DNA of 11,569 bases from IMG/VR virus record IMGVR_UViG_2671180283_000020; one strand, 5' to 3'. The notes under the pieces were generated by a model that saw nothing but the letters and a program-made list of their open reading frames with translations, had not been told where the DNA came from and searched no databases. This DNA comes from a virus (taxonomy: Duplodnaviria > Heunggongvirae > Uroviricota > Caudoviricetes). The position numbers and the translations under genes were made by a program. Below, in pieces: positions 3,381 to 11,569 of this stretch (its first letter is position 1; every line of letters begins with the position of its first letter).

Positions 3381-3496
3381 GTTGACCTCATTTCCCCTTA
3401 ACGCCGGGGTAGCGGAACTGTTTGCTGAGAACACCGTGCGGTGTCTTGATGGATCGTAATTTAGTTTTCTCATGAATATTGGTCAAGTACTTTTAA

Positions 3497-3509
3497 TGAG
3501 AAAACTCAA
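3497..3509. promoter_or_regulatory. Operator-like inverted repeat TGAGAAAACTCAA (copy 1), in the promoter region of the minus-strand dicB-type operon
   Basis: A 13-bp motif with TGAG/CTCA inverted half-sites, identical to the copy at 4031..4043. It lies between the repressor gene's 3' end and ydfA, overlapping candidate minus-strand -35/-10 elements. Confidence 0.45.
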
Positions 3510-3520
3510 TATTTAATGCA

Positions 3521-3555
3521 AAATAAAGCCAATACATTGAAATGTAAGGCTTTAA
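3521..3555 (-). terminator. Possible intrinsic terminator downstream of the dicA-like gene
   Basis: Minus strand reads GCCTTACATT-TCAATGTATTGGC (imperfect stem) followed by TTTATTTT. Stem is imperfect, so low confidence. Confidence 0.3.
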
Positions 3556-3571
3556 AATTTGTGAAGGGGGG

Positions 3572-3979
3572 TTATTGATGTTTGTTACGTTTGCGAGCTT
3601 CTAGTAGCTCGGTGAATAGGCGATTAAAATTCTCAACGCGGGCACGGAGTTCGCTGATTTGTGCTTGCTGCTCTGATTTTGGAAGTGCGCGATACAATCG
3701 CAACATCTCCAACTCATCTTCCGATAAGTCTAAGGCGCTGTTGAGTGCAACTGGTGGATCTGGTGTTTTATCCTCGTCACCAAACAGTATCCAAGTTGGT
3801 GAACATTGCAATACCTCAGCCAGGCGATGCAAATTTTGCCCGCGCGGGGCTGTATGGTCGCTTTCCCATAGTGAAATTGATGAGCCAGATACGCCAGCAG
3901 CTTTGCTTAAATCGTTTTGACTTAAACCAACCTGTTTGCGTCTTTCTCTAATTCGTTGACCTAAAGTTTTCTCGTTCAT
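3572..3979 (-). CDS. dicA: DicA-like XRE-family HTH repressor (prophage immunity repressor, 135 aa)
   Basis: MNEKTLGQRIRERRKQVGLSQNDLSKAAGVSGSSISLWESDHTAPRGQNLHRLAEVLQCSPTWILFGDEDK...: HTH_XRE signature in the N-terminus. Same length as DicA and strongly resembles it as I recall. Divergent from a Cro/DicC-like gene. Confidence 0.9.
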   Translation of the reverse strand: MNEKTLGQRIRERRKQVGLSQNDLSKAAGVSGSSISLWESDHTAPRGQNLHRLAEVLQCSPTWILFGDEDKTPDPPVALNSALDLSEDELEMLRLYRALPKSEQQAQISELRARVENFNRLFTELLEARKRNKHQ

Positions 3980-4000
3980 ATTTAGATATCTTAATAACCC

Positions 4001-4043
4001 TTGACTTGAGATTCCTTGAGTGATTACTATTGAGAAAACTCAA
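4001..4043 (+). promoter_or_regulatory. Candidate promoter for the dicC-like gene (-35 TTGACT 4001..4006, -10-like TTACTA/TACTAT about 4024..4030) overlapping operator-like motif TTGAGAAAACTCAA (4030..4043, copy 2) and additional TTGAG half-sites
   Basis: Hexamers read directly, with 17-18 bp spacing. The motif is identical to the 3497..3509 copy; three TTGAG half-sites occur within about 40 bp. Confidence 0.45.
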
Positions 4044-4056
4044 CTTTGGAGGGGTG

Positions 4057-4284
4057 ATGTTTAAATCAGACGTAATTAATTTTTATGGGACGAAAGCCAA
4101 AGTAGCGAAAGCTGCTGGTGTTGATCCATCTGCTGTTTCTCAATGGGGGGAACTGGTTCCTGAAGGTCGCGCGATGCGCCTGCAAGAGGCATCCGGCGGG
4201 GAACTTCAGTACGACCCCAAAGTTTATGACGAATATCGTAAGGCAAAGCGGGCGGGGCGGTTGAACAATGAAAATCACCCCTGA
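4057..4284 (+). CDS. dicC: Cro/DicC-like small regulator (75 aa), divergent from the repressor
   Basis: MFKSDVINFYGTKAKVAKAAGVDPSAVSQWGELVPEGRAMRLQEASGGELQYDPKVYDEYRKAKRAGRLNNENHP with GGAGG Shine-Dalgarno 5 nt upstream of the ATG at 4057. The track ORF starts at an upstream TTG (4030), which I consider less likely. Size and position match dicC/ydaS-type genes. Confidence 0.75.
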   Translation: MFKSDVINFYGTKAKVAKAAGVDPSAVSQWGELVPEGRAMRLQEASGGELQYDPKVYDEYRKAKRAGRLNNENHP

Positions 4285-4819
4285 ACAGGTTTGTGAGGCT
4301 CTGGATGCCTGGGTATGCCGACCAGGAATGACACAGGAGCAGGCGACGATATTAATCACGGAAGCATTCTGGGCTCTGAAAGAACGCCCGAACATCGATG
4401 TTCAACGCGTCACGTTTAATGATGGCGAGGTTGATCAACGGGCGCTGGGCGTTAACCGGGTGAAGATATTCGAACGCTGGAAAGCTATCGACACCAGGGA
4501 TAAGCGGAAAAAATTCACGGCGCTGATTCCGGCAATTATGGAGGCTATCCGAATTAGTGATTTCAGGCTGTATCGTGAGATCAGTGATGGAAAAAGCATT
4601 ACGTACATGATCGCCGGATTAAACAAAGAATATGGCGATGTGGTGGAGTCCGGGCTGCTTTTTGCGGATCCAGCTGTTGTGGAACGTGAGACTGACGAGC
4701 TTATAGAAAAAGCTATTGCTTTCAAGCATGCGTATCGTCAGCAATATCAATATTACTTTGCAGATAAACAAATGTCTGCCAGGGGTTCGTATGAGTATCG
4801 ATGCACTACGATGGGCTAA
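4268..4819 (+). CDS. YdaT-like prophage protein (183 aa; proposed CII-like/toxic regulator family)
   Basis: Follows the Cro-like gene with a 17-bp overlap. Contains a K-x-x-x-LIPAI-x-x-AI segment reminiscent of Rac YdaT, recalled with low precision. Confidence 0.65.
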   Translation: MKITPEQVCEALDAWVCRPGMTQEQATILITEAFWALKERPNIDVQRVTFNDGEVDQRALGVNRVKIFERWKAIDTRDKRKKFTALIPAIMEAIRISDFRLYREISDGKSITYMIAGLNKEYGDVVESGLLFADPAVVERETDELIEKAIAFKHAYRQQYQYYFADKQMSARGSYEYRCTTMG

Positions 4820-5822
4820 AAAGGTGAAAACCGGCAGTTCATCCAGTAAGTCAGTATTGACCTGGCTTGCTGATATGTGCGGTGCCGATTTGTGTGCATA
4901 CCCGTCTGTATCTGCCCTGGCAGAAGTAACGGAACTGAACAAAAAGACAGTGCAGGACAGCTTACGACACCTGATGGAGATTGGGTTAATTGTTGATACC
5001 GGTGAGAGAAAAGGCAGAACAAAGCAAATTGTGGTGTACCGACTTATCGGTGTAGAAGAAAGTGTTGCCGAACCTGAATACACCCAAAAACGGGAGTCTT
5101 TAAAGGTGGGTAAAATTGGTGCTGTTAATAAAAACAGTACCGAAAATGGTTATGTTTCAGCACAAAACAGACCCAAAAACGGAACTCTTAGCTGCATGGA
5201 AAATAACCAAAGACACCCAAATTTTCCATCAAAGACACCCAAAAACGGATCACGGAACCCAAAGGAACCCAAAGTTCTAAACCCCACACATAACGCACGC
5301 GAGAGTGCTCTGACCAGTGAGCAGGAAGTTTTGTCGTTACAGGCAGTATTCCTGGATGGCCTGAGAGAACCCATCGGAAAATTTCTGATGACCGATAGCT
5401 GGCATCCGTCGCGGGATTTTCGACGACGGGCTGCGTTGTGGGGGATGGCTTTGCCGGAGCCGGAATTTACACCTGCTGAACTTGCCGCATTCCGGGATTA
5501 CTGGAGTGATGAGGGGAAAGTGTTTACGCAGATTCAGTGGGAGCAGAAATTCGCCCGTCACGTAAATCACGTCAGGGCGCAGGTTAAACCAGTCAGCAAG
5601 GGGGTGAACCATGCAGCAGCACCAGGGGGCACCGCATCACGGGCAGTTCAGGAAATTCGGGCAGCACGTGAGCAGTGGGAACGTGAAAACGGATTTATCC
5701 GCGACGGAAACGGCGTGGAAGCTGTGGGAACTCATGGGGGAGGTTTATTCGAACCGCTGGACCCAGAAGAACGGGGCCGCACCTTCGAAGCTCTGGATTG
5801 CACAGATTGGTGCGATGACTGA
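4791..5822 (+). CDS. Replication initiator, lambda O-like role: N-terminal HTH replication-protein domain plus C-terminal DnaT-like domain
   Basis: From the ATG at 4791 (AGGGG Shine-Dalgarno 4 nt upstream): MSIDALRWAKKVKTGSSSSKSVLTWLADMCGADLCAYPSVSALAEVTELNKKTVQDSLRHLMEIGLIVDTGERKGRTKQIVVYRLIG... with C-terminal ...FTPAELAAFRDYWSDEGKVFTQIQWEQKFARHVNHV. The last ~70 codons are lower-complexity and overlap the P-like ORF, so the true C-terminus is uncertain. The track start at 4716 is rejected (no Shine-Dalgarno; internal to the YdaT-like gene). Confidence 0.8.
   Translation: MSIDALRWAKKVKTGSSSSKSVLTWLADMCGADLCAYPSVSALAEVTELNKKTVQDSLRHLMEIGLIVDTGERKGRTKQIVVYRLIGVEESVAEPEYTQKRESLKVGKIGAVNKNSTENGYVSAQNRPKNGTLSCMENNQRHPNFPSKTPKNGSRNPKEPKVLNPTHNARESALTSEQEVLSLQAVFLDGLREPIGKFLMTDSWHPSRDFRRRAALWGMALPEPEFTPAELAAFRDYWSDEGKVFTQIQWEQKFARHVNHVRAQVKPVSKGVNHAAAPGGTASRAVQEIRAAREQWERENGFIRDGNGVEAVGTHGGGLFEPLDPEERGRTFEALDCTDWCDD
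5168..5275. repeat. Iteron-like direct repeats (ACCCAAA-containing units, at least five copies) inside the initiator gene linker; candidate phage replication origin
   Basis: cagACCCAAAAACGGAac (5168..5185), AGACACCCAAAtttt (5211..5225), AGACACCCAAAAACGGAtc (5233..5251), GGAACCCAAAG x2 in tandem (5254..5275), preceded by an AT-rich stretch at about 5110..5165. By analogy with lambda, where ori iterons lie inside gene O. Confidence 0.45.
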
Positions 5823-6276
5823 GCAGCAAATCCGACAGGTCTGCCGCCAGTGCATGGACCGCTGCCGGGAGGGTGAAACATGGCCTCCGGACCTGGCTGA
5901 GTTTGTGGCACTGATTTCGGAAAGCGGAGCCAATCCATTCGGTCTGACGGTGGATGCTGTGATGGAGGAGTACCGCCGCTGGCGCAATGAGTCCTGGCGA
6001 TACGACGGAAGTGATAAGTACCCGTGGTCTCAGCCTGTGCTGTATCACATTTGCCTCGAGATGCGTTCAAAGGGGGTTGAGCGCCAGATGACCGAAGGGG
6101 AATTAAAACGGCTTGCAGAACGGCAGCTGACGAAATGGGCAAAGCATGTTAGTAACGGCCTGAGCGTTCCGCCAGTCCGGCGACAACTGGCGGCACCCAA
6201 ACGCCCGTCGGGGCCAACGCCAATTGAGTTGCTGAAACAGGAATATGAACGCCGGAAAGCGGCTGGGCTTGTTTGA
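5611..6276 (+). CDS. Lambda P-like replication protein (helicase loader family)
   Basis: Strong Shine-Dalgarno AAGGGGGTG 6 nt upstream of the ATG at 5611. The C-terminal half (FVALISESGANPFGLTVDAVMEEYRRWRNESWRYDGSDKYPWSQPVLYHICLEMR...TEGELKRLAERQL) resembles lambda P (FVAWCREEA...VYEYCRKRGLYPDAESYPWKSNAHYWL...TDAELRRKAADEL). Alternative start at the ATG 5815, which overlaps the O-like stop as ATGACTGA. Confidence 0.7.
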   Translation: MQQHQGAPHHGQFRKFGQHVSSGNVKTDLSATETAWKLWELMGEVYSNRWTQKNGAAPSKLWIAQIGAMTEQQIRQVCRQCMDRCREGETWPPDLAEFVALISESGANPFGLTVDAVMEEYRRWRNESWRYDGSDKYPWSQPVLYHICLEMRSKGVERQMTEGELKRLAERQLTKWAKHVSNGLSVPPVRRQLAAPKRPSGPTPIELLKQEYERRKAAGLV

Positions 6277-6308
6277 GTTGAGAAGTAATTTTTACCGGGA
6301 GGAAATTT

Positions 6309-6583
6309 ATGGAGACTGTTTTTGACGCACTGAAAGCAATGGGAAAAGCCACATCCATAGAACTTGCTGCGCGCGTGAAGAAGTGCTGAACGAACTATGG
6401 GAACTGAAAAAGGCTGGTTTTGTTGATAAAAGCGCGTACACCTGGCGTGTGGCTGATAACAACGTTCAGCAGGAACAGCCAGCGCAGGCAGAACTGCCGG
6501 AAGAAACCACCACAATGAGTGAAGTTATGCAGCGCATACTGGCATTTTATCAGGGAAATGTTCGATATTTTAGACGTTACTAG
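6309..6583 (+). pseudogene. Small winged-helix-like prophage gene split by a frameshift (rem-position gene): 26-codon N-terminal ORF 6309..6389 and a C-terminal ORF in another frame reaching the stop at 6581..6583
   Basis: GGGAGG Shine-Dalgarno 6 nt upstream of the ATG at 6309. Frame 0 reads [26 protein letters not shown] then stops; the adjacent frame reads (E)[27 protein letters not shown]... from about 6380. The two pieces together look like one small DNA-binding protein. Confidence 0.5.
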
Positions 6584-6975
6584 ATTAAAGAGCATTAGTT
6601 CAGATGTGAATTGACATTGTGTGGCACAGGGTTGGGCTAGCGTGGGGGTTTGCTTTGTGTAAGAAACGGATGCTCTGCAAATTACTACTAATGCTTAATG
6701 TTAGTCTGATCTGCTCCCCGATGATTAATACACCGCTATGTTAGTAATGTCTGTAGATCGCTGTGTGTTGCATCCATCGGTTGACCCCACAGTCCAAACC
6801 AGACTGTCAGCTTTGATTCGATTCTATCTACTCAACCTGTCAGGTAATGTCTGAGCTAATACACAGAGTACGGCTATCGCGAACTTTAAGCTAGGTATCT
6901 GATACGCACCGTTCACTTGTTTGTACTTCTTGCACTGACTAGCTATCGTGCGCAGTTATTTATAGGTAATCTCCA

Positions 6976-6984
6976 GTGTATAAT
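6976..6984 (+). promoter_or_regulatory. Candidate -10 element (TATAAT at 6979..6984 with TG immediately upstream) for the 281-aa gene
   Basis: gtgTATAAT about 38 nt upstream of the ATG at 7023, followed by AGGAGG Shine-Dalgarno 6 nt before the ATG. No good -35 hexamer found. Confidence 0.4.
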
Positions 6985-7022
6985 TTTCCAACTTATGGGA
7001 GATTGTAAAACAGGAGGAATAT

Positions 7023-7868
7023 ATGAGGAAAAAATCGTTTGGACGTTGCCCGTTTGATTTCGACGAAGATGTAAAAAAAATAGCCGCGATAAATAAATAT
7101 ATCCATGCGAAATTTGAGAGGCATAAAAATAAAATAGATAACCTAAAGGGGGTGGAACAAAAATTGATGGTTTTACATTACTTTAATGTACTGAATGAAC
7201 TTAGTAATCAGGCTATATTTTCTTTGAGTACCGGAGCCTTTTCAGCATCGGAAGTATTAACTAGAGTTATAATGGAACAGGCTGCCAATCAATTTTATAT
7301 AGCAATTGATGATGGAAAAAATGCACAAGCATTACTCAAGGGTAGTAAGAAATTAGTTCATAGTAATGGGAAACGGTGGCTGGAGTGTTTAAAATCCAAA
7401 GAAATGACTAATCCAGCAGCAGATGAAAGGATTCGTATCGGAAAAGAGCTAACTGATATGTTTAATAGATTGTGGCCAAATACACCTGAATATCCTGGAA
7501 CCAAAAAGCTTTTCGAAGTAATTGGCTGGGAAACACACTATCATGCCTATTACGTCCCTCTTTGTGATTCAATACATACATTCTCTGATGATATGGCAAA
7601 TATAGTATCTCTATATAATGCAATCCAAAGCGATAAAACTACTGCTATCGAACTCACTCTTGCAGTTAAACAAGAAAATAAACGGCTGGCAATTTATAAT
7701 GTCGTAATTGCTATTGGCCTGCGGTGTGAGGCCTTAGTAAATGTATTTAACTCTTTAGGTTATCGAGATATTATAACTGAAATGGCGCCAACAATAGATG
7801 CAGTCAACCAGATTATAATTCGATATGATGATTTCGAACATTCCAGAATTTTTATTGTCAATAATTAA
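7023..7868 (+). CDS. Orphan hypothetical protein (281 aa), AT-rich, predicted largely alpha-helical; candidate defence/abortive-infection cargo gene of unknown family
   Basis: Long ORF in AT-rich DNA with a near-consensus AGGAGG Shine-Dalgarno. No Walker, HNH, HEPN or other motif recognised by eye. Located between the prophage replication module and a decayed integrase plus the Septu operon. Confidence 0.75.
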   Translation: MRKKSFGRCPFDFDEDVKKIAAINKYIHAKFERHKNKIDNLKGVEQKLMVLHYFNVLNELSNQAIFSLSTGAFSASEVLTRVIMEQAANQFYIAIDDGKNAQALLKGSKKLVHSNGKRWLECLKSKEMTNPAADERIRIGKELTDMFNRLWPNTPEYPGTKKLFEVIGWETHYHAYYVPLCDSIHTFSDDMANIVSLYNAIQSDKTTAIELTLAVKQENKRLAIYNVVIAIGLRCEALVNVFNSLGYRDIITEMAPTIDAVNQIIIRYDDFEHSRIFIVNN

Positions 7869-7936
7869 TTGGCAGAATTCGTACATGCACAACAACTAGT
7901 TATAGTTGACCTATTTCGCTCTTGAGAGACAACCAT

Positions 7937-7969
7937 ACTCAAATCTTCCACATTGCAGGAGATTTGAGT
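7937..7969 (+). other. Perfect 10-bp inverted repeat ACTCAAATCT / AGATTTGAGT with a 13-nt loop, immediately upstream of the integrase-remnant ATG
   Basis: Read directly from sequence. The loop/right arm contains GGAG (7957..7960), the Shine-Dalgarno for the ATG at 7970. No U-tract follows, so not a classical terminator. Confidence 0.5.
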
Positions 7970-8490
7970 ATGAATACGTCACCGAGGAACAAAGACAGTA
8001 TCATAGGCCCAAAAAGACCACTTCAGATATCTCATATCTGGGGGCTCCAAATCCGGCTTGAACTGGAAGGTAAAACGCGTGATTTAGCTCGGTTTCAAGC
8101 AGAGCTACGGTGCTGCAACTGAAAAACTGGCAGTCCTATCCAATTTGAGATAACCAAAGGGACAAGAGAAGCTGTTTCTGCATTGATAAAGCTTGGCAAT
8201 TTACGCAGTAAAGACTACTTGTTCCGATCTCGGGTCGGTACTAACCAACACATATCAATCCTGCAATATAACCGAATCTTTCATAGGGGGGAGAAAAGCT
8301 TGGTCTCGAAGATTCGCTTTACAGCACACATTCCATGAGAAGAACAAAACCTTGCCTTGTCTGCAAGAAAACTAAGAATCTCCGGGTGATCCAACTTCCG
8401 TTGGGCCATAAGAAAACGGAAAGCACAGTTCGTTATCTGGGTATAGAAGTTGATGATGCATTAGAGATCTCTGAATCGATCGAAGTCTAA
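7970..8490 (+). pseudogene. Decayed small tyrosine recombinase (integrase catalytic-domain family): in-frame TGA at 8120..8122 and a frame change near 8336
   Basis: Three consecutive segments translate to MNTSPRNKDSIIGPKRPLQISHIWGLQIRLELEGKTRDLARFQAELRCCN* / KTGSPIQFEITKGTREAVSALIKLGNLRSKDYLFRSRVGTNQHISILQYNRIFHRGEKSLVSKIRFTAHIP* / RRTKPCLVCKKTKNLRVIQLPLGHKKTESTVRYLGIEVDDALEISESIEV*. These carry recombinase hallmarks (TRDLA Arg, H-x-x-RRTK, LGH, VRY tyrosine). The last two segments lack any Met, so they are absent from the ORF track. Confidence 0.65.
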
Positions 8491-8902
8491 AGCTGTCAGG
8501 GCTGCAGCAGCAGCCCTGTGCCAAGAGCGTACCAATATATGTCTCAAAAAATTGGGCACAGGTCAATATCAATACCAACAACTCTGATTGTGCTCATGTG
8601 ATTTACTCCTGTAGAAAACGCAGACAGTAAAAATATTTCACTGGCTGCTTCAGACAGGGCGTCCATCATATCATTACATAACAATAGCGGGGCACGATAT
8701 CTAGACATGCAGCAACGATGGACATAGAATGAGTACAATCAAAAGCATGTTTAACTACTTTAATTTAAAAATCTTAGAATCTTAGGTGTAGAGTTCAATA
8801 CTTAGTTACATACCCTTTTGAAAGCATCACAAATCATAACTATGAGCCTGTTAAAGGCATAGGTATTCTTAATTAAGAGCATTTTAATGAGAGAAAAATA
8901 AA

Positions 8903-10276
8903 ATGAAAAGACTATATTATACCCATCATGATAGTCGAACCTTAAAACTTGCTATAGAAGGTGATGTTTCTGATAATGCGAATATTTTTACAGTAATTGT
9001 AGGTAAAAATGGCGTTGGAAAAAGCAGATTGTTATCTCAGATTGCTAAAGACTGTATTCAAGATGTTCATTTCTTGAAAACTTTTAATCCATTATTTGAC
9101 AGAGAAATAACACCAAAGTTAATTGCCGTATCTACCAGCCCATTCGATAAATTCCCTCCAGGGCGTAGGTCATTAAATCACCAAAGGAAAGAAAATAATT
9201 ATCGCTATGTGGGTATGCGTGGAGAAGGCCCCTTCGGCGTATCAAATGCCGTATCCCTTTTATCTTCAGCAGCGAGAGGTTGGCTAGAGAAACTTGCTTA
9301 TTCAGAAAATCCTGCAAATTTACTCGATGTTTTTCATTCTATTGATTTTGAGCCCCATATAGAGTTTGTATTTAAACCAACTTACAACGGACCGGACACT
9401 CCTGACTATAACTTCATTGGTGTATATTCAGATGAGATATTAACGGAAGTTAAGGAGTTATATTTAAAATACAATATAAAAATTGACAGGAAGAATATTG
9501 AGAGTCTCTTAAAGTTAAACTCCGAATCACGTCATGATATTTACGAAGCACTGGTTGAAATTAATCGATTTGAACCTGAACGTAGGGCTGTAACCTTGTC
9601 AGTCGATTTTACCAATGGTGAAACATTGGTTGGCTCGACTTATGCGAATAATTATTTTTCTAGATCAATTCTTAAACTTATGAACGCTGGCTTCATGAGA
9701 TTGATGGATATGCGACTCATAAAAAAAAGCTATGGTCCCATGTCACTTAAACGTGCGAGCTCGGGAGAACAATGTTTATTAGTGATGTTGCTTGGAATTG
9801 CAGGGCATATAACTGATGGTTCTATAATATTAATTGATGAACCGGAAATAAGCTTGCATCCTCGATGGCAGGAAGAGTTTATCATTATGTTAACAAAAGC
9901 ATTTTTAACTTACTCAGGTTGTCAATTCATAATTGCAACTCATTCACCACAAATAATATCCAATTTGCCGAATAAAGGTTGTTATATAACATCTTTGTCG
10001 AAAAGTTATCTTTATAAAGCAAAATACTTTAGCAACCGGTCTGCAGACTATCAACTTGCGGAACTATTTGATGCCCCTGGCATTATGAATGAATACATTG
10101 CCAGGTTAGCTTTCAATTTACTTTCAAAAGTTAAGACTGCTAAGTTAGTAACAGATGATAATTGGCGTGAATTAAAACAACTCCAACTTCTCCTTGAAAA
10201 CGTTAATAGTAATGACCCTATTAATGAACTCGTAAATTCCGTATCTCAGGTGTGTGAAATTTATGCCAAAAATTAA
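8903..10276 (+). CDS. ptuA: Septu-like PtuA: ABC/OLD-type (AAA_15/AAA_21-like) ATPase, 457 aa
   Basis: Walker A VIVGKNGVGKSRLL near the N-terminus, ABC-signature-like SSGEQ, Walker B IILIDEPEISLHP, H-loop IIATHSP. AT-rich gene that overlaps the downstream HNH gene. Confidence 0.8.
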   Translation: MKRLYYTHHDSRTLKLAIEGDVSDNANIFTVIVGKNGVGKSRLLSQIAKDCIQDVHFLKTFNPLFDREITPKLIAVSTSPFDKFPPGRRSLNHQRKENNYRYVGMRGEGPFGVSNAVSLLSSAARGWLEKLAYSENPANLLDVFHSIDFEPHIEFVFKPTYNGPDTPDYNFIGVYSDEILTEVKELYLKYNIKIDRKNIESLLKLNSESRHDIYEALVEINRFEPERRAVTLSVDFTNGETLVGSTYANNYFSRSILKLMNAGFMRLMDMRLIKKSYGPMSLKRASSGEQCLLVMLLGIAGHITDGSIILIDEPEISLHPRWQEEFIIMLTKAFLTYSGCQFIIATHSPQIISNLPNKGCYITSLSKSYLYKAKYFSNRSADYQLAELFDAPGIMNEYIARLAFNLLSKVKTAKLVTDDNWRELKQLQLLLENVNSNDPINELVNSVSQVCEIYAKN

Positions 10277-10898
10277 AAATCCAATTAGATTCAGCGCAGA
10301 GTCATTAGATATTATTGAGAAAAAATTGTCTTCTCCAGATTTTAAGCATACCAACTGGGGAGATGATGATTTGCAAGTTCTCCGTGCAGAAATTAGAAAT
10401 CATTACAGAGAAGAACAAAAGCTAGAATGTGTATATTGTCATGAGCCTATTGGGGTAAGAGCTGCACAAGCTGCTCCTATAGAGCATATTGTGCCAAAAT
10501 CTCAATATCTATGTTTTATTTTTGAACCTAAGAATCTATGTGTAGTATGTCCTGACTGCAATGAATTCAAAGGTAAAAATGAAGTGTTATTTGAACCCGT
10601 AATAAATGGGGGGCGGCGCAAAAACTATCCAACTGCATCTGCATCATTTCGCATCGTTCATCCACATATAGATGATTATGAGATGCATATTATAAAAGCA
10701 AATCGTGTTTATGTGGACAAAACACCTAAAGGGCACTATACCATTGGAATATGTAAACTAAATAGATTTTTTCATTATTTTGGGATGTGTGATGAATTTG
10801 TTAATGATGCAAAAATTGCTGAGGCAAATGAAAATTTTTTCAAAAAAGGTAGTATTACTACTAATGAATTATTGGATGATGACATTCATTTGATTTAA
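10263..10898 (+). CDS. ptuB: Septu-like PtuB: HNH endonuclease, 211 aa from the ATG at 10263 (214 aa if the GTG at 10254 is used)
   Basis: HNH-type motif CVYCHEP...APIEHIVPKSQ...CVVCPDCNEFKGKN...VHPHID (Cys pairs plus His/Asn/His). Overlaps the ptuA 3' end by 14-23 nt, implying one operon. Confidence 0.8.
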   Translation: MPKIKNPIRFSAESLDIIEKKLSSPDFKHTNWGDDDLQVLRAEIRNHYREEQKLECVYCHEPIGVRAAQAAPIEHIVPKSQYLCFIFEPKNLCVVCPDCNEFKGKNEVLFEPVINGGRRKNYPTASASFRIVHPHIDDYEMHIIKANRVYVDKTPKGHYTIGICKLNRFFHYFGMCDEFVNDAKIAEANENFFKKGSITTNELLDDDIHLI

Positions 10899-11007
10899 CT
10901 ATGAATTATTATATTGTAAAGTAATCAGGTAAGATATGTTAGACAGTGAGACTATTGCCTTACAGAATTCATTATTCTTATGGATCGCCTTTCTGACTGA
11001 TTTCATA

Positions 11008-11036
11008 TTGGCGGGGTAACGGGAGTTAAGTAGAAT
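11008..11036 (+). promoter_or_regulatory. Candidate hok mRNA promoter (-35 TTGGCG 11008..11013, 17-bp spacer, -10 TAGAAT 11031..11036)
   Basis: Hexamers read directly. The downstream leader (GCTTGAGGCTATCTGTCTCA...GGCAGATAGAGAAAAGCCCC) resembles the 5' region of plasmid R1 hok mRNA as I recall it. Confidence 0.45.
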
Positions 11037-11094
11037 GGCTGCGGGTGCTTGAGGCTATCTGTCTCAGGCATGAACACCAAAGGCAGATAGAGAA

Positions 11095-11165
11095 AAGCCC
11101 CAGTTAACATTACGCGTCCTGCAAGACGCTTAACATTAATCTGAGGCCAATTTCATGCTAGACAC
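11095..11165 (-). ncRNA. sok: Putative Sok-like antisense RNA (boundaries approximate)
   Basis: Inferred from the minus-strand promoter at 11170..11198 and from the hok/sok paradigm, where Sok is antisense to the mok translation-initiation region. Neither end is clearly defined by a terminator in the sequence. Confidence 0.3.
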
Positions 11166-11169
11166 ATGT

Positions 11170-11198
11170 AGGTTAGCCTCTTACGTGCCGGAAGGCAA
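11170..11198 (-). promoter_or_regulatory. Candidate sok promoter on the minus strand (-35 TTGCCT, 17-bp spacer, -10 TAACCT)
   Basis: Reverse complement of 11193..11198 is TTGCCT and of 11170..11175 is TAACCT. It sits between the upstream ATG at 11155 and the hok ATG, the arrangement I recall for the R1 sok promoter (TTGCGC / TATCCT). Confidence 0.45.
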
Positions 11199-11211
11199 GG
11201 AGAAGCAGGCT

Positions 11212-11367
11212 ATGAAGCAGCAAAAGGCGATGTTAATCGCCCTGATCGTCATCTGTTTAACCGTCATAGTGACGACACTGGTAACGAGGAAAGACCTCTG
11301 CGAGGTACGAATCCGAACCGGCCAGACGGAGGTCGCTGTCTTCACAGCTTACGAACCTGAGGAGTAA
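11212..11367 (+). CDS. hokD: Hok/Gef-family type I toxin (51 aa), HokD/RelF-like
   Basis: MKQQKAMLIALIVICLTVIVTTLVTRKDLCEVRIRTGQTEVAVFTAYEPEE with AAGGAG Shine-Dalgarno 9 nt upstream. Near-identical to recalled HokD (RelF). The track ORF 11155..11367 is an in-frame upstream extension from the mok-equivalent ATG. Confidence 0.85.
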   Translation: MKQQKAMLIALIVICLTVIVTTLVTRKDLCEVRIRTGQTEVAVFTAYEPEE

Positions 11368-11435
11368 GAGACCCGGCGAGGGAGAAATCCCTCGCCACCT
11401 CTGATGTGGCAGGCATCCTCAACGCACCCGCACTT

Positions 11436-11465
11436 AACCCGCTTCGGCGGGTTTTTGTTTTTATT
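11436..11465 (+). terminator. Rho-independent terminator at the hok mRNA 3' end
   Basis: AACCCGC-TTCG-GCGGGTT stem-loop followed by TTTGTTTTTATTTT. A further hairpin GGCGAGGG-agaaat-CCCTCGCC lies at 11375..11396. Confidence 0.6.
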
Positions 11466-11569
11466 TTCAACGCGTTTGAAGTTCTGGACGGCGCCGGAAT
11501 AGAATCAAAAATACTTAAGTAGCGCGCAGGGATAAGAGGGATGGTCCCTTAAAGGGGAGAGCTAATTAT

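Follow-up and report, generated by a model that had tools for sequence, protein, structure and literature searches.

The DNA analysed here, an 11,569-bp stretch referred to as the window (IMG/VR record IMGVR_UViG_2671180283_000020), is the immunity and replication region of an E. coli lambdoid prophage, and is 96-99% identical to the early region of E. coli lambdoid prophages of the PPompW type. Our subject is an array of direct repeats (iterons) inside its replication initiator gene, in the linker between a winged-helix N-terminal domain (N-domain) and a DnaT-like C-terminal domain (C-domain), which the original prediction had put forward as a candidate prophage origin. The gene is laid out as follows, with iteron scores taken from the position weight matrix (PWM) described below.

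4791-5822, + strand: replication initiator gene, 343 amino acids (phrog_1032, Pfam DnaT, Pfam HTH_36)
4791-5054, + strand: region encoding the winged-helix DNA-binding domain, residues 1-88 (AlphaFold2 model and alignments)
5078-5100, + strand: iteron 1, ATACACCCAAAAACGGGAGTCTT, PWM score 29.8 bits, with near-palindromic arms ACACCC/GGGAGT; read as TQKRE
5134-5156, + strand: iteron 2, degenerate, ACAGTACCGAAAATGGTTATGTT, PWM score 20.3 bits; read as TENG
5167-5189, + strand: iteron 3, ACAGACCCAAAAACGGAACTCTT, PWM score 30.5 bits; read as RPKNG
5211-5233, + strand: half-site, AGACACCCAAATTTTCCATCAAA, below the PWM threshold, with the left arm present and the right arm lost; read as HPNF
5233-5255, + strand: iteron 4, AGACACCCAAAAACGGATCACGG, PWM score 22.8 bits; read as TPKNG
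5254-5274, + strand: tandem of two GGAACCCAAAG units (TRF period 10, 100%), a shortened local form of the GAAYCTAYCAAT repeat
5279-5292, + strand: mosaic junction, TAAACCCCACACAT, where Rac-type ydaU homology starts (Rac-SA53 matches gene nucleotides 508-1032 only)
5370-5594, + strand: region encoding the DnaT-like single-stranded DNA-binding domain, residues 194-268 (PF17948; PDB 6aep, 4ou6, 9zbt)

The iteron array and the initiator protein

The heptamer ACCCAAA occurs seven times in the window, and six copies, at 5082, 5171, 5215, 5237, 5257 and 5267, are crowded on the + strand within 192 bp (5082-5273); 2000 dinucleotide-preserving shuffles never yielded more than two per 200 bp. At least five copies had been predicted between 5168 and 5275, and five of the six do lie there. 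The sixth, within the site at 5078-5100, sits upstream and had been overlooked, so that the feature starts at ~5078 rather than 5168. A longer form had also been ascribed to two of the copies. This held in part: the exact 17-mer AGACACCCAAAAACGGA is found once (5233), with the sites at 5078 and 5167 differing from it by two mismatches each, while ACCCAAAAACGGA is exactly common to the copies at 5171 and 5237.

A matrix built from 34 sites in eight relatives, with the window left out, was used to scan both strands of the window. Four sites scored 20-30 bits, every one of them on the + strand, and no other position in the window exceeded 8.5 bits. The unit that the matrix describes is ~23 bp long, A-N4-(A/C)CC(A/G)AAAACGG-N4-GTT, and has partial dyad symmetry, with an inner core of CC-(A/G)AAAAC-GG and variable outer arms which are often inverted repeats, as in the ACAGTACCGAAAACGGTACTGT-type sites and ACACCCAAAAACGGGTGT of relatives. 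The core of iteron 1, ACACCCAAAAACGGGAGT, is the most palindromic among the copies, and the 26-mer around it is identical in Edwardsiella phage EPP-1. The form taken by the degenerate iteron 2, ACCGAAAACGG, is a frequent variant among relatives, and the half-site is orthologous to a ACACCCAATTTTGG site conserved in Edwardsiella, Serratia and Plesiomonas relatives. The four matrix sites and the half-site occupy codons 97-155, and the repeats overall span codons 97-162 (nucleotides 288-465 of the gene). Successive sites start 56, 33, 44 and 22 bp apart, where exact multiples of 11 would be 55, 33, 44 and 22. Helical phasing was considered as a general property of these arrays and rejected: the window and EPP-1 show multiples of ~11 bp, whereas most of the family has spacings of 24, 18 and 17 bp.

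The placement of the repeats between the helix-turn-helix and DnaT-like domains was borne out, with Pfam HTH_36 at residues 36-67 and DnaT at residues 199-264 on either side, and the initiator is thus ordered as winged-helix N-domain, linker bearing the repeats, and DnaT-like C-domain. Its best full-length PHROG match is phrog_1032, 'replication initiation protein' (2.4e-88). The N-domain, of ~88 residues, is modelled as a confident winged helix (AlphaFold2 pLDDT, the predicted local distance difference test, 90.7; topology H-H-H-H-E-E) and is conserved in three homolog alignments. Its HTH_36 match, at 20.8 bits, falls under the cut-off of 25, and PF13730 is recorded for close homologs; Foldseek returned many generic winged helix-turn-helix regulators, with the RepA_N structures 4pql, 4pt7 and 5kbj reaching only E ~0.02. 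The DnaT match (PF17948, 61 bits) lies above its cut-off, as does that to Phage_lambda_P in the next gene, and the C-domain matches the DnaT chains 6aep, 4ou6 and 9zbt in PDB at up to 8e-20. The likeness to DnaT is confined to this domain: against NF002770 (NCBIfam) the initiator scores 92 bits, under the cut-off of 201, and so is not a full-length DnaT equivalog. Neither was there a Pfam match to Phage_rep_O, and hhalign against lambda O gave a probability of 2.5%. As the N-domain alone has weak PHROG matches to several 'O-like' families (1e-10 to 5e-5), and Brezellec et al. (2017; PMC5509034) reported an HHpred match of lambda O to HTH_36, a remote kinship of this domain with lambda O is possible.

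Constraint on the repeats and their linkage to the DNA-binding domain

Copies of ACCCAAA fall in all three frames of the initiator gene, where they are read as TQKRE, RPKNG, HPNF, TPKNG and NPKEPK, and across 17 homologous genes the core occupies frame 0 38 times, frame 1 16 times and frame 2 once. Codons in the linker motif [PTSA][KEQ]N[GR] were counted against the rest of the same genes. Proline is CCC in 39/39 cases (50/252 elsewhere) and lysine is AAA in 31/31 (180/355 elsewhere); asparagine is AAC in 61/62, glutamate GAA in 27/27 and threonine ACC in 18/19, and glycine is never encoded by GGC. These counts are not independent, since some of the 17 genes are closely related, and their direction is unambiguous. 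The sites are, moreover, partly palindromic, which fits a dimeric winged-helix protein and not a peptide repeat. The three frames, the fixed synonymous codons and the partial palindromes show that the repeats are constrained as DNA rather than as protein, and they are therefore most likely binding sites for the initiator, probably occupied by dimers of its own winged-helix N-domain.

The PKNG/NPKEPK linker noted by the original prediction is thus encoded, but as a by-product of CCC AAA AAC GG and not as a selected peptide repeat. That the array might be nothing other than a low-complexity protein linker, generated by slippage and without function as DNA, is very unlikely, although the region does encode a flexible linker between two domains, PKNG-like peptides recur among homologs, 60% of the spacings are multiples of three, and slippage does occur, as seen in the extra 10-bp unit of an IMG/VR homolog (L024). 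Against it stand the reading of one DNA motif in three frames, the fixity of synonymous positions (all 39 CCC and all 31 AAA), the partial palindromes, the lack of an array where this C-terminal half follows a different N-domain, and the fact that the slippage unit of L024 truncates the protein at 170 amino acids. Conservation among homologs runs the same way: rather than a conserved protein linker over unconserved DNA repeats, we found the DNA motif kept at 60-80% protein identity. Copy number also varies, from four to seven ACCCAAA among near-identical E. coli loci covering the whole linker, with fewer in two shorter loci.

The palindromes bear on a further explanation, namely that the repeats act as hairpins in mRNA or single-stranded DNA, for translation, processing or priming. 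The RNA fold predicted for 5070-5285 is indeed stable (-49.7 kcal/mol, z = -3.25 versus shuffles), and includes a 9-bp stem, GGTGCTGTT/AACAGTACC, formed by the outer arms of neighbouring sites. Because its stems pair the arms of neighbouring palindromes, as they would in any array of dyad-symmetric protein sites, and because Rfam yielded no match, we take this stability as a side effect; the individual window sites are imperfect palindromes, and their core is conserved as sequence and not as pairing. A hairpin function therefore strikes us as barely credible.

The pattern extends well beyond the window. Homologs were gathered in two sets, one of 18 loci with one genome per species, and one of 80 IMG/VR loci with 44-66% identity to a distant seed. 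Among the 80, direct short-range 9-mer repeats cover 25-53% of the zone at +250 to +450 from the start codon, versus 2-3% in the flanks and the remaining gene; the repeat peak lies at +280 to +465 in 74/80 of these distant loci, and a 10-mer is repeated at least three times in that zone in 77 of 79 distinct genes. Spacings across the family are mostly 24, 18, 17, 23, 36, 22 and 25 bp; 40% of them are not divisible by three. Many lineages carry the CC-RAAAAC-GG core with altered outer arms (e.g. GTACCGAAAACGGTAC, GTCCCAAAAACGGGAC), and lineages with another wing sequence carry other repeats in the same place (e.g. GTGCCAAAAGTGGCAC, GTCGGCAAAGCCGAC, CCCCGAACGTGGTTCGGG, CAACCGGTCA).

Natural fusions place the repeats with the N-domain. 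In EPP-1, the N-domain is 60% identical to that of the window and the C-domain is unrelated, and six copies of ACACCCAAAAACGG are present. In the YdaU of Rac-SA53, conversely, a C-terminal half shared with the window (90% identical in nucleotides from position 508 of the gene) is joined to an N-domain of DUF1376 type, and the gene has no such repeat array. The junction at TAAACCCCACACAT is sharp and lies directly 3' of the repeats. As EPP-1 keeps both N-domain and repeats alongside another C-domain, and Rac YdaU has neither, these comparisons indicate that the N-domain and repeats act as one exchangeable module, as in lambdoid phages. Iteron 10-mer sharing follows N-domain identity, at 94-100% above 70% identity and ~35% below 60%. 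Rac oriJ was considered as an experimentally known equivalent and rejected, since with a different N-domain and no array in Rac-SA53 YdaU, data on oriJ would not transfer.

The same junction invites the suggestion that the repeats are conserved 'linker' DNA promoting recombinational exchange of initiator modules between phages, for the mosaic junction comes directly after the array, with Rac-type ydaU homology from ~5279, and the C-terminal half is fused to several other N-domains, including those of T5orf172 and DUF1376 type in other E. coli proteins. Such linker DNA, however, would have no need for arrays of three to seven dyad-symmetric sites, would not vary with the DNA-binding domain of the lineage, and would not persist across proteobacterial classes and an actinobacterium; we hold this explanation to be highly improbable.

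The 12-mer element, neighbouring genes and circular records

The perfect tandem of GGAACCCAAAG reported by the original prediction is present, at 5254 and 5264, although it does not belong to the same class as the iterons; it is the local representative of a separate, family-wide element. Directly 3' of the iterons, most members carry two to four tandem copies of the 12-mer GAAYCTAYCAAT, with a period of 10-13 bp, most often 12. The pattern GAAYC-N5-8-GAAYC is found at +300 to +620 in 76/96 non-identical loci, and has 126 matches in that interval versus four in the remaining ~3 kb per locus; among representatives sharing less than 85% N-domain identity, the element is present in 43-44 of 54-55. 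Its nucleotide consensus is unchanged between units in frame 0 and frame 2, and in 25/44 loci the units of a single array are spread over two or more frames, one unit reading NLS and the next EPI, for instance. The 12-mer is present regardless of iteron type, C-domain or helicase loader type, in ~80% of the family, and in phages of gamma-, beta- and deltaproteobacteria together with one actinobacterial locus. Close relatives of the window have GGAATCTACCAAGGAACCATAAAG as the orthologous sequence, which in the window is shortened to 10 bp, and AAAGATCT, an A-tract or a C-run (ACCCCCC) often comes after the element.

We tentatively suggest that the 12-mer may be an undescribed core origin element, of which the window tandem at 5254-5274 would be the local form. 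A role as the place of duplex opening or helicase loading is proposed from its position and periodicity, and it could be read by the conserved winged-helix face, possibly on single-stranded DNA, or by a universal host replication factor. To the right of the AT-rich block of the lambda origin (record positions 39159-39199) lies GAATTCTGGCGAATCC, with two GAAT(T)C units 10 bp apart; this pair loosely resembles the GAAYC tandem and falls outside the strict pattern, and the resemblance may be coincidence.

Several homologs have shortened open reading frames. In L024, the sequence orthologous to 5254-5274 has a third 10-bp unit, GGAACCCAAA, giving seven ACCCAAA copies and the frameshift behind its truncated initiator, and further IMG/VR copies (L007, L008, L051, L060, L080) are also truncated. 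In three distant homologs (L101, L103 and L185), the open reading frame of the N-domain ends in or just after the 12-mer, at 138, 104 and 117 amino acids, respectively, and in L103 a domain of the C-terminal type appears to resume in another frame; these early stops could reflect sequencing frameshifts, pseudogenes or split initiators.

The genes and the candidate promoter around the initiator are as follows.

3572-3979, - strand: CI/DicA-like repressor gene (immunity; Pfam HTH_3, 1.2e-16), called dicA in PPompW phages
4001-4030, + strand: candidate pR-like promoter, TTGACT-18-TACTAT, 9/12 matches (consensus match only)
4030-4284, + strand: Cro/DicC-like gene (Pfam P22_Cro, 1.4e-17)
4268-4819, + strand: YdaT-like gene (Pfam YdaT_toxin, 2.3e-05)
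5815-6276, + strand: lambda-P-like helicase loader gene (Pfam Phage_lambda_P, 7.3e-17; phrog_109 'P-like helicase loader', 4e-54)

The ATG of the loader gene overlaps the initiator stop codon (ATGA). The candidate promoter would drive cro, ydaT, the initiator gene and P, and transcription from it would therefore cross the repeats. The YdaT-like gene lies where lambda has cII, after cro and before the initiator gene, whose start it overlaps by 29 bp. Further downstream, a DUF5677-like gene (7023-7868) had no PADLOC match, and the overlapping genes at 8903-10276 and 10254-10898 match the anti-phage system Septu in PADLOC (PtuA 1.2e-165, PtuB 1.1e-83), which the prophage carries as cargo beyond its replication module.

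Much of this segment also exists as a circular record. NZ_CP148379.1 (E. coli Z1323HEC0067; PLSDB, RefSeq) is a circle of 8,461 bp made up of window 3418-11569 plus ~300 bp, at 99.2% identity, which carries hokD, rem and a defence system of two genes besides the repressor, cro, ydaT, initiator, P and DUF5677 genes; it has no replication genes beyond those for the initiator and P. A search of 20,395 E. coli records found at least 80% of the segment in only 17. Apart from the circle itself, these are 16 chromosomes from different strains, with the segment forming a contiguous part of a prophage, and no second record of the NZ_CP148379.1 strain is among the 17. A 15.6-kb circular record, NZ_CP148543.1, holds the immunity-replication segment of this prophage and cargo only, and both circles start near window 3406-3418. 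These records may be mini-replicons like lambda-dv or assembly artefacts. If NZ_CP148379.1 is genuine, it is a lambda-dv-like plasmid with its origin inside the segment; as it may be an artefact, we count it as suggestive only.

The origin reading and known systems

Taken together, the findings support the original prediction of a candidate prophage origin in the initiator gene, and we consider it probable that the iterons at 5078-5255 and the adjoining GAACC tandem constitute that origin, much as ori-lambda lies within gene O. Initiator binding, unwinding and origin activity are what we infer from the array and its setting. Derepression would permit transcription from the pR-like promoter and thus production of the initiator and its P-like loader. 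Initiator dimers would then fill the iterons, on roughly one helix face given start spacings near multiples of 11, and the A-tract centres would favour bending into an O-some-like complex. Neighbouring DNA would open in turn, with the DnaT-like C-domain holding single-stranded DNA and/or docking the P-like protein that brings host DnaB.

Several observations count against this interpretation. There is no marked AT-rich unwinding element in the region: the adjoining AT-rich stretch of the original prediction proved weak (32-37% GC at 5100-5160), and the least stable stretch, at 5101-5160, departs from the window by only z = +1.0 in duplex stability. Beyond the last repeat, on its 3' side, GC content is 48-52%, and the position flanking the iterons where an AT-rich element would be expected is occupied by the GAACC tandem. 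A perfect core is present in only three window sites, and as the segment at 5107-5127 looks like a decayed copy of the second EPP-1 site, the array could be partly degenerate in this prophage. With 60% of family spacings being multiples of three, a protein-level contribution is possible in places; the fall in iteron sharing with N-domain divergence is also expected from common descent alone, and carries little weight; and NZ_CP148379.1 may be an artefact of assembly. The searchable literature yielded no experimental evidence on any initiator of this family, and sequence alone cannot separate regulatory binding sites from an origin.

This last point opens the way to an account in which the repeats are initiator sites for regulation only (autoregulation, copy control or handcuffing), and replication starts elsewhere in the prophage. 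Constraint on the DNA and linkage to the DNA-binding domain fit an operator array as well as an origin, iteron plasmids use the same sites for both, and no clear AT-rich unwinding element adjoins the repeats. Nevertheless, sites placed ~1 kb downstream of the sole promoter-like site found, and inside a coding region, would be poorly situated as operators, whereas their position matches the proven origin of lambda. The 8.46-kb circular record, if genuine, would limit any origin to its segment, and most relatives have a second conserved element after the array. We accordingly regard a purely regulatory array as unlikely.

The DNA is thus most likely to contain an intragenic origin of lambda type, in an initiator gene that belongs to another, widespread family. 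Text searches of the literature for the 12-mer, the iteron core and variants of that core returned nothing relevant, those on iterons with DnaT-type phage initiators, oriJ and ydaU gave no description of this origin, and papers on Eru phages made no mention of iterons or DnaT. If the origin is confirmed, a defined 200-bp fragment would hold that of a very common prophage class in E. coli and enterobacteria, which includes the PPompW prophages of Shiga-toxin-producing strains; annotations of the replication modules in this class usually go no further than 'DnaT-like protein' and 'replication protein P'. The lambda rule, by which origin and DNA-binding domain form one exchangeable module, would likewise extend to a large and phylogenetically broad family of initiators with an HTH_36-type winged helix. 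The conserved 12-mer would offer a concrete target for understanding how such origins open without an obvious AT-rich element, and the fragment with its two genes could serve as a new compatible mini-replicon.

Among the closest known systems is ori-lambda, along with the comparable origins of other lambdoid phages. In ori-lambda, as here, some four dyad-symmetric sites, ~19-23 bp long and centred on an A-tract (lambda TCCCTCAAAACGAGGGA, here ACACCCAAAAACGGGAGT), lie in the initiator gene between the parts encoding an N-terminal DNA-binding domain and a C-terminal region; the positional parallel drawn by the original prediction holds, with the lambda iterons at nucleotides 349-433 of gene O and those of the window at 288-465. 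The sites fall in different frames in both, the four lambda iterons have a CCC...AAAAC...GGG layout, a P-type helicase loader gene comes next, and transcription arrives from a pR-like promoter, which is a candidate here. The initiator in the window differs in standing outside the detectable lambda O sequence family and in its DnaT-like C-domain. Its iterons are followed by the GAACC tandem instead of a clear AT-rich block.

Theta plasmids offer a further analogy. In RK2, F, R6K, pPS10 and pSK41 (RepA_N), arrays of sites for winged-helix Rep proteins adjoin 11-13-bp repeats at which the DNA opens. The direct array beside short tandem repeats is similar here, and RepA_N was among the Foldseek matches (E ~0.02); plasmid iterons are, however, intergenic, their 13-mers are AT-rich, and the likeness seen here is one of arrangement. 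With E. coli DnaT (primosomal protein I), the initiator shares the C-terminal three-helix, single-stranded DNA-binding domain (PF17948, 61 bits), but in that domain only, and DnaT lacks a winged-helix origin-binding domain.

A matching gene architecture is that of DopC and DopE of Cellvibrionales and some Oceanospirillales, in which a protein with HTH_36 and a C-terminal DnaT motif is followed by a lambda-P-like protein; Brezellec et al. (2017; PMC5509034) trace the pair back to O and P of lambdoid phages. The same two-gene order, HTH_36 and DnaT followed by Phage_lambda_P, is found in the window. A protein search seeded with Neptuniibacter recovered no recognisable DopC from Cellvibrionales, and one candidate, P0163, was rejected as another prophage with iterons. 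DopC is chromosomal and domesticated, and no iteron-like sequences were found in it by the same authors (PMC5509034), whereas the gene described here is prophage-borne and bears repeats. It looks like a phage-borne, iteron-bearing counterpart of DopC, and, should the origin prove real, the phage initiator and loader genes would together be the iteron-bearing counterpart of the domesticated DopC/DopE pair.

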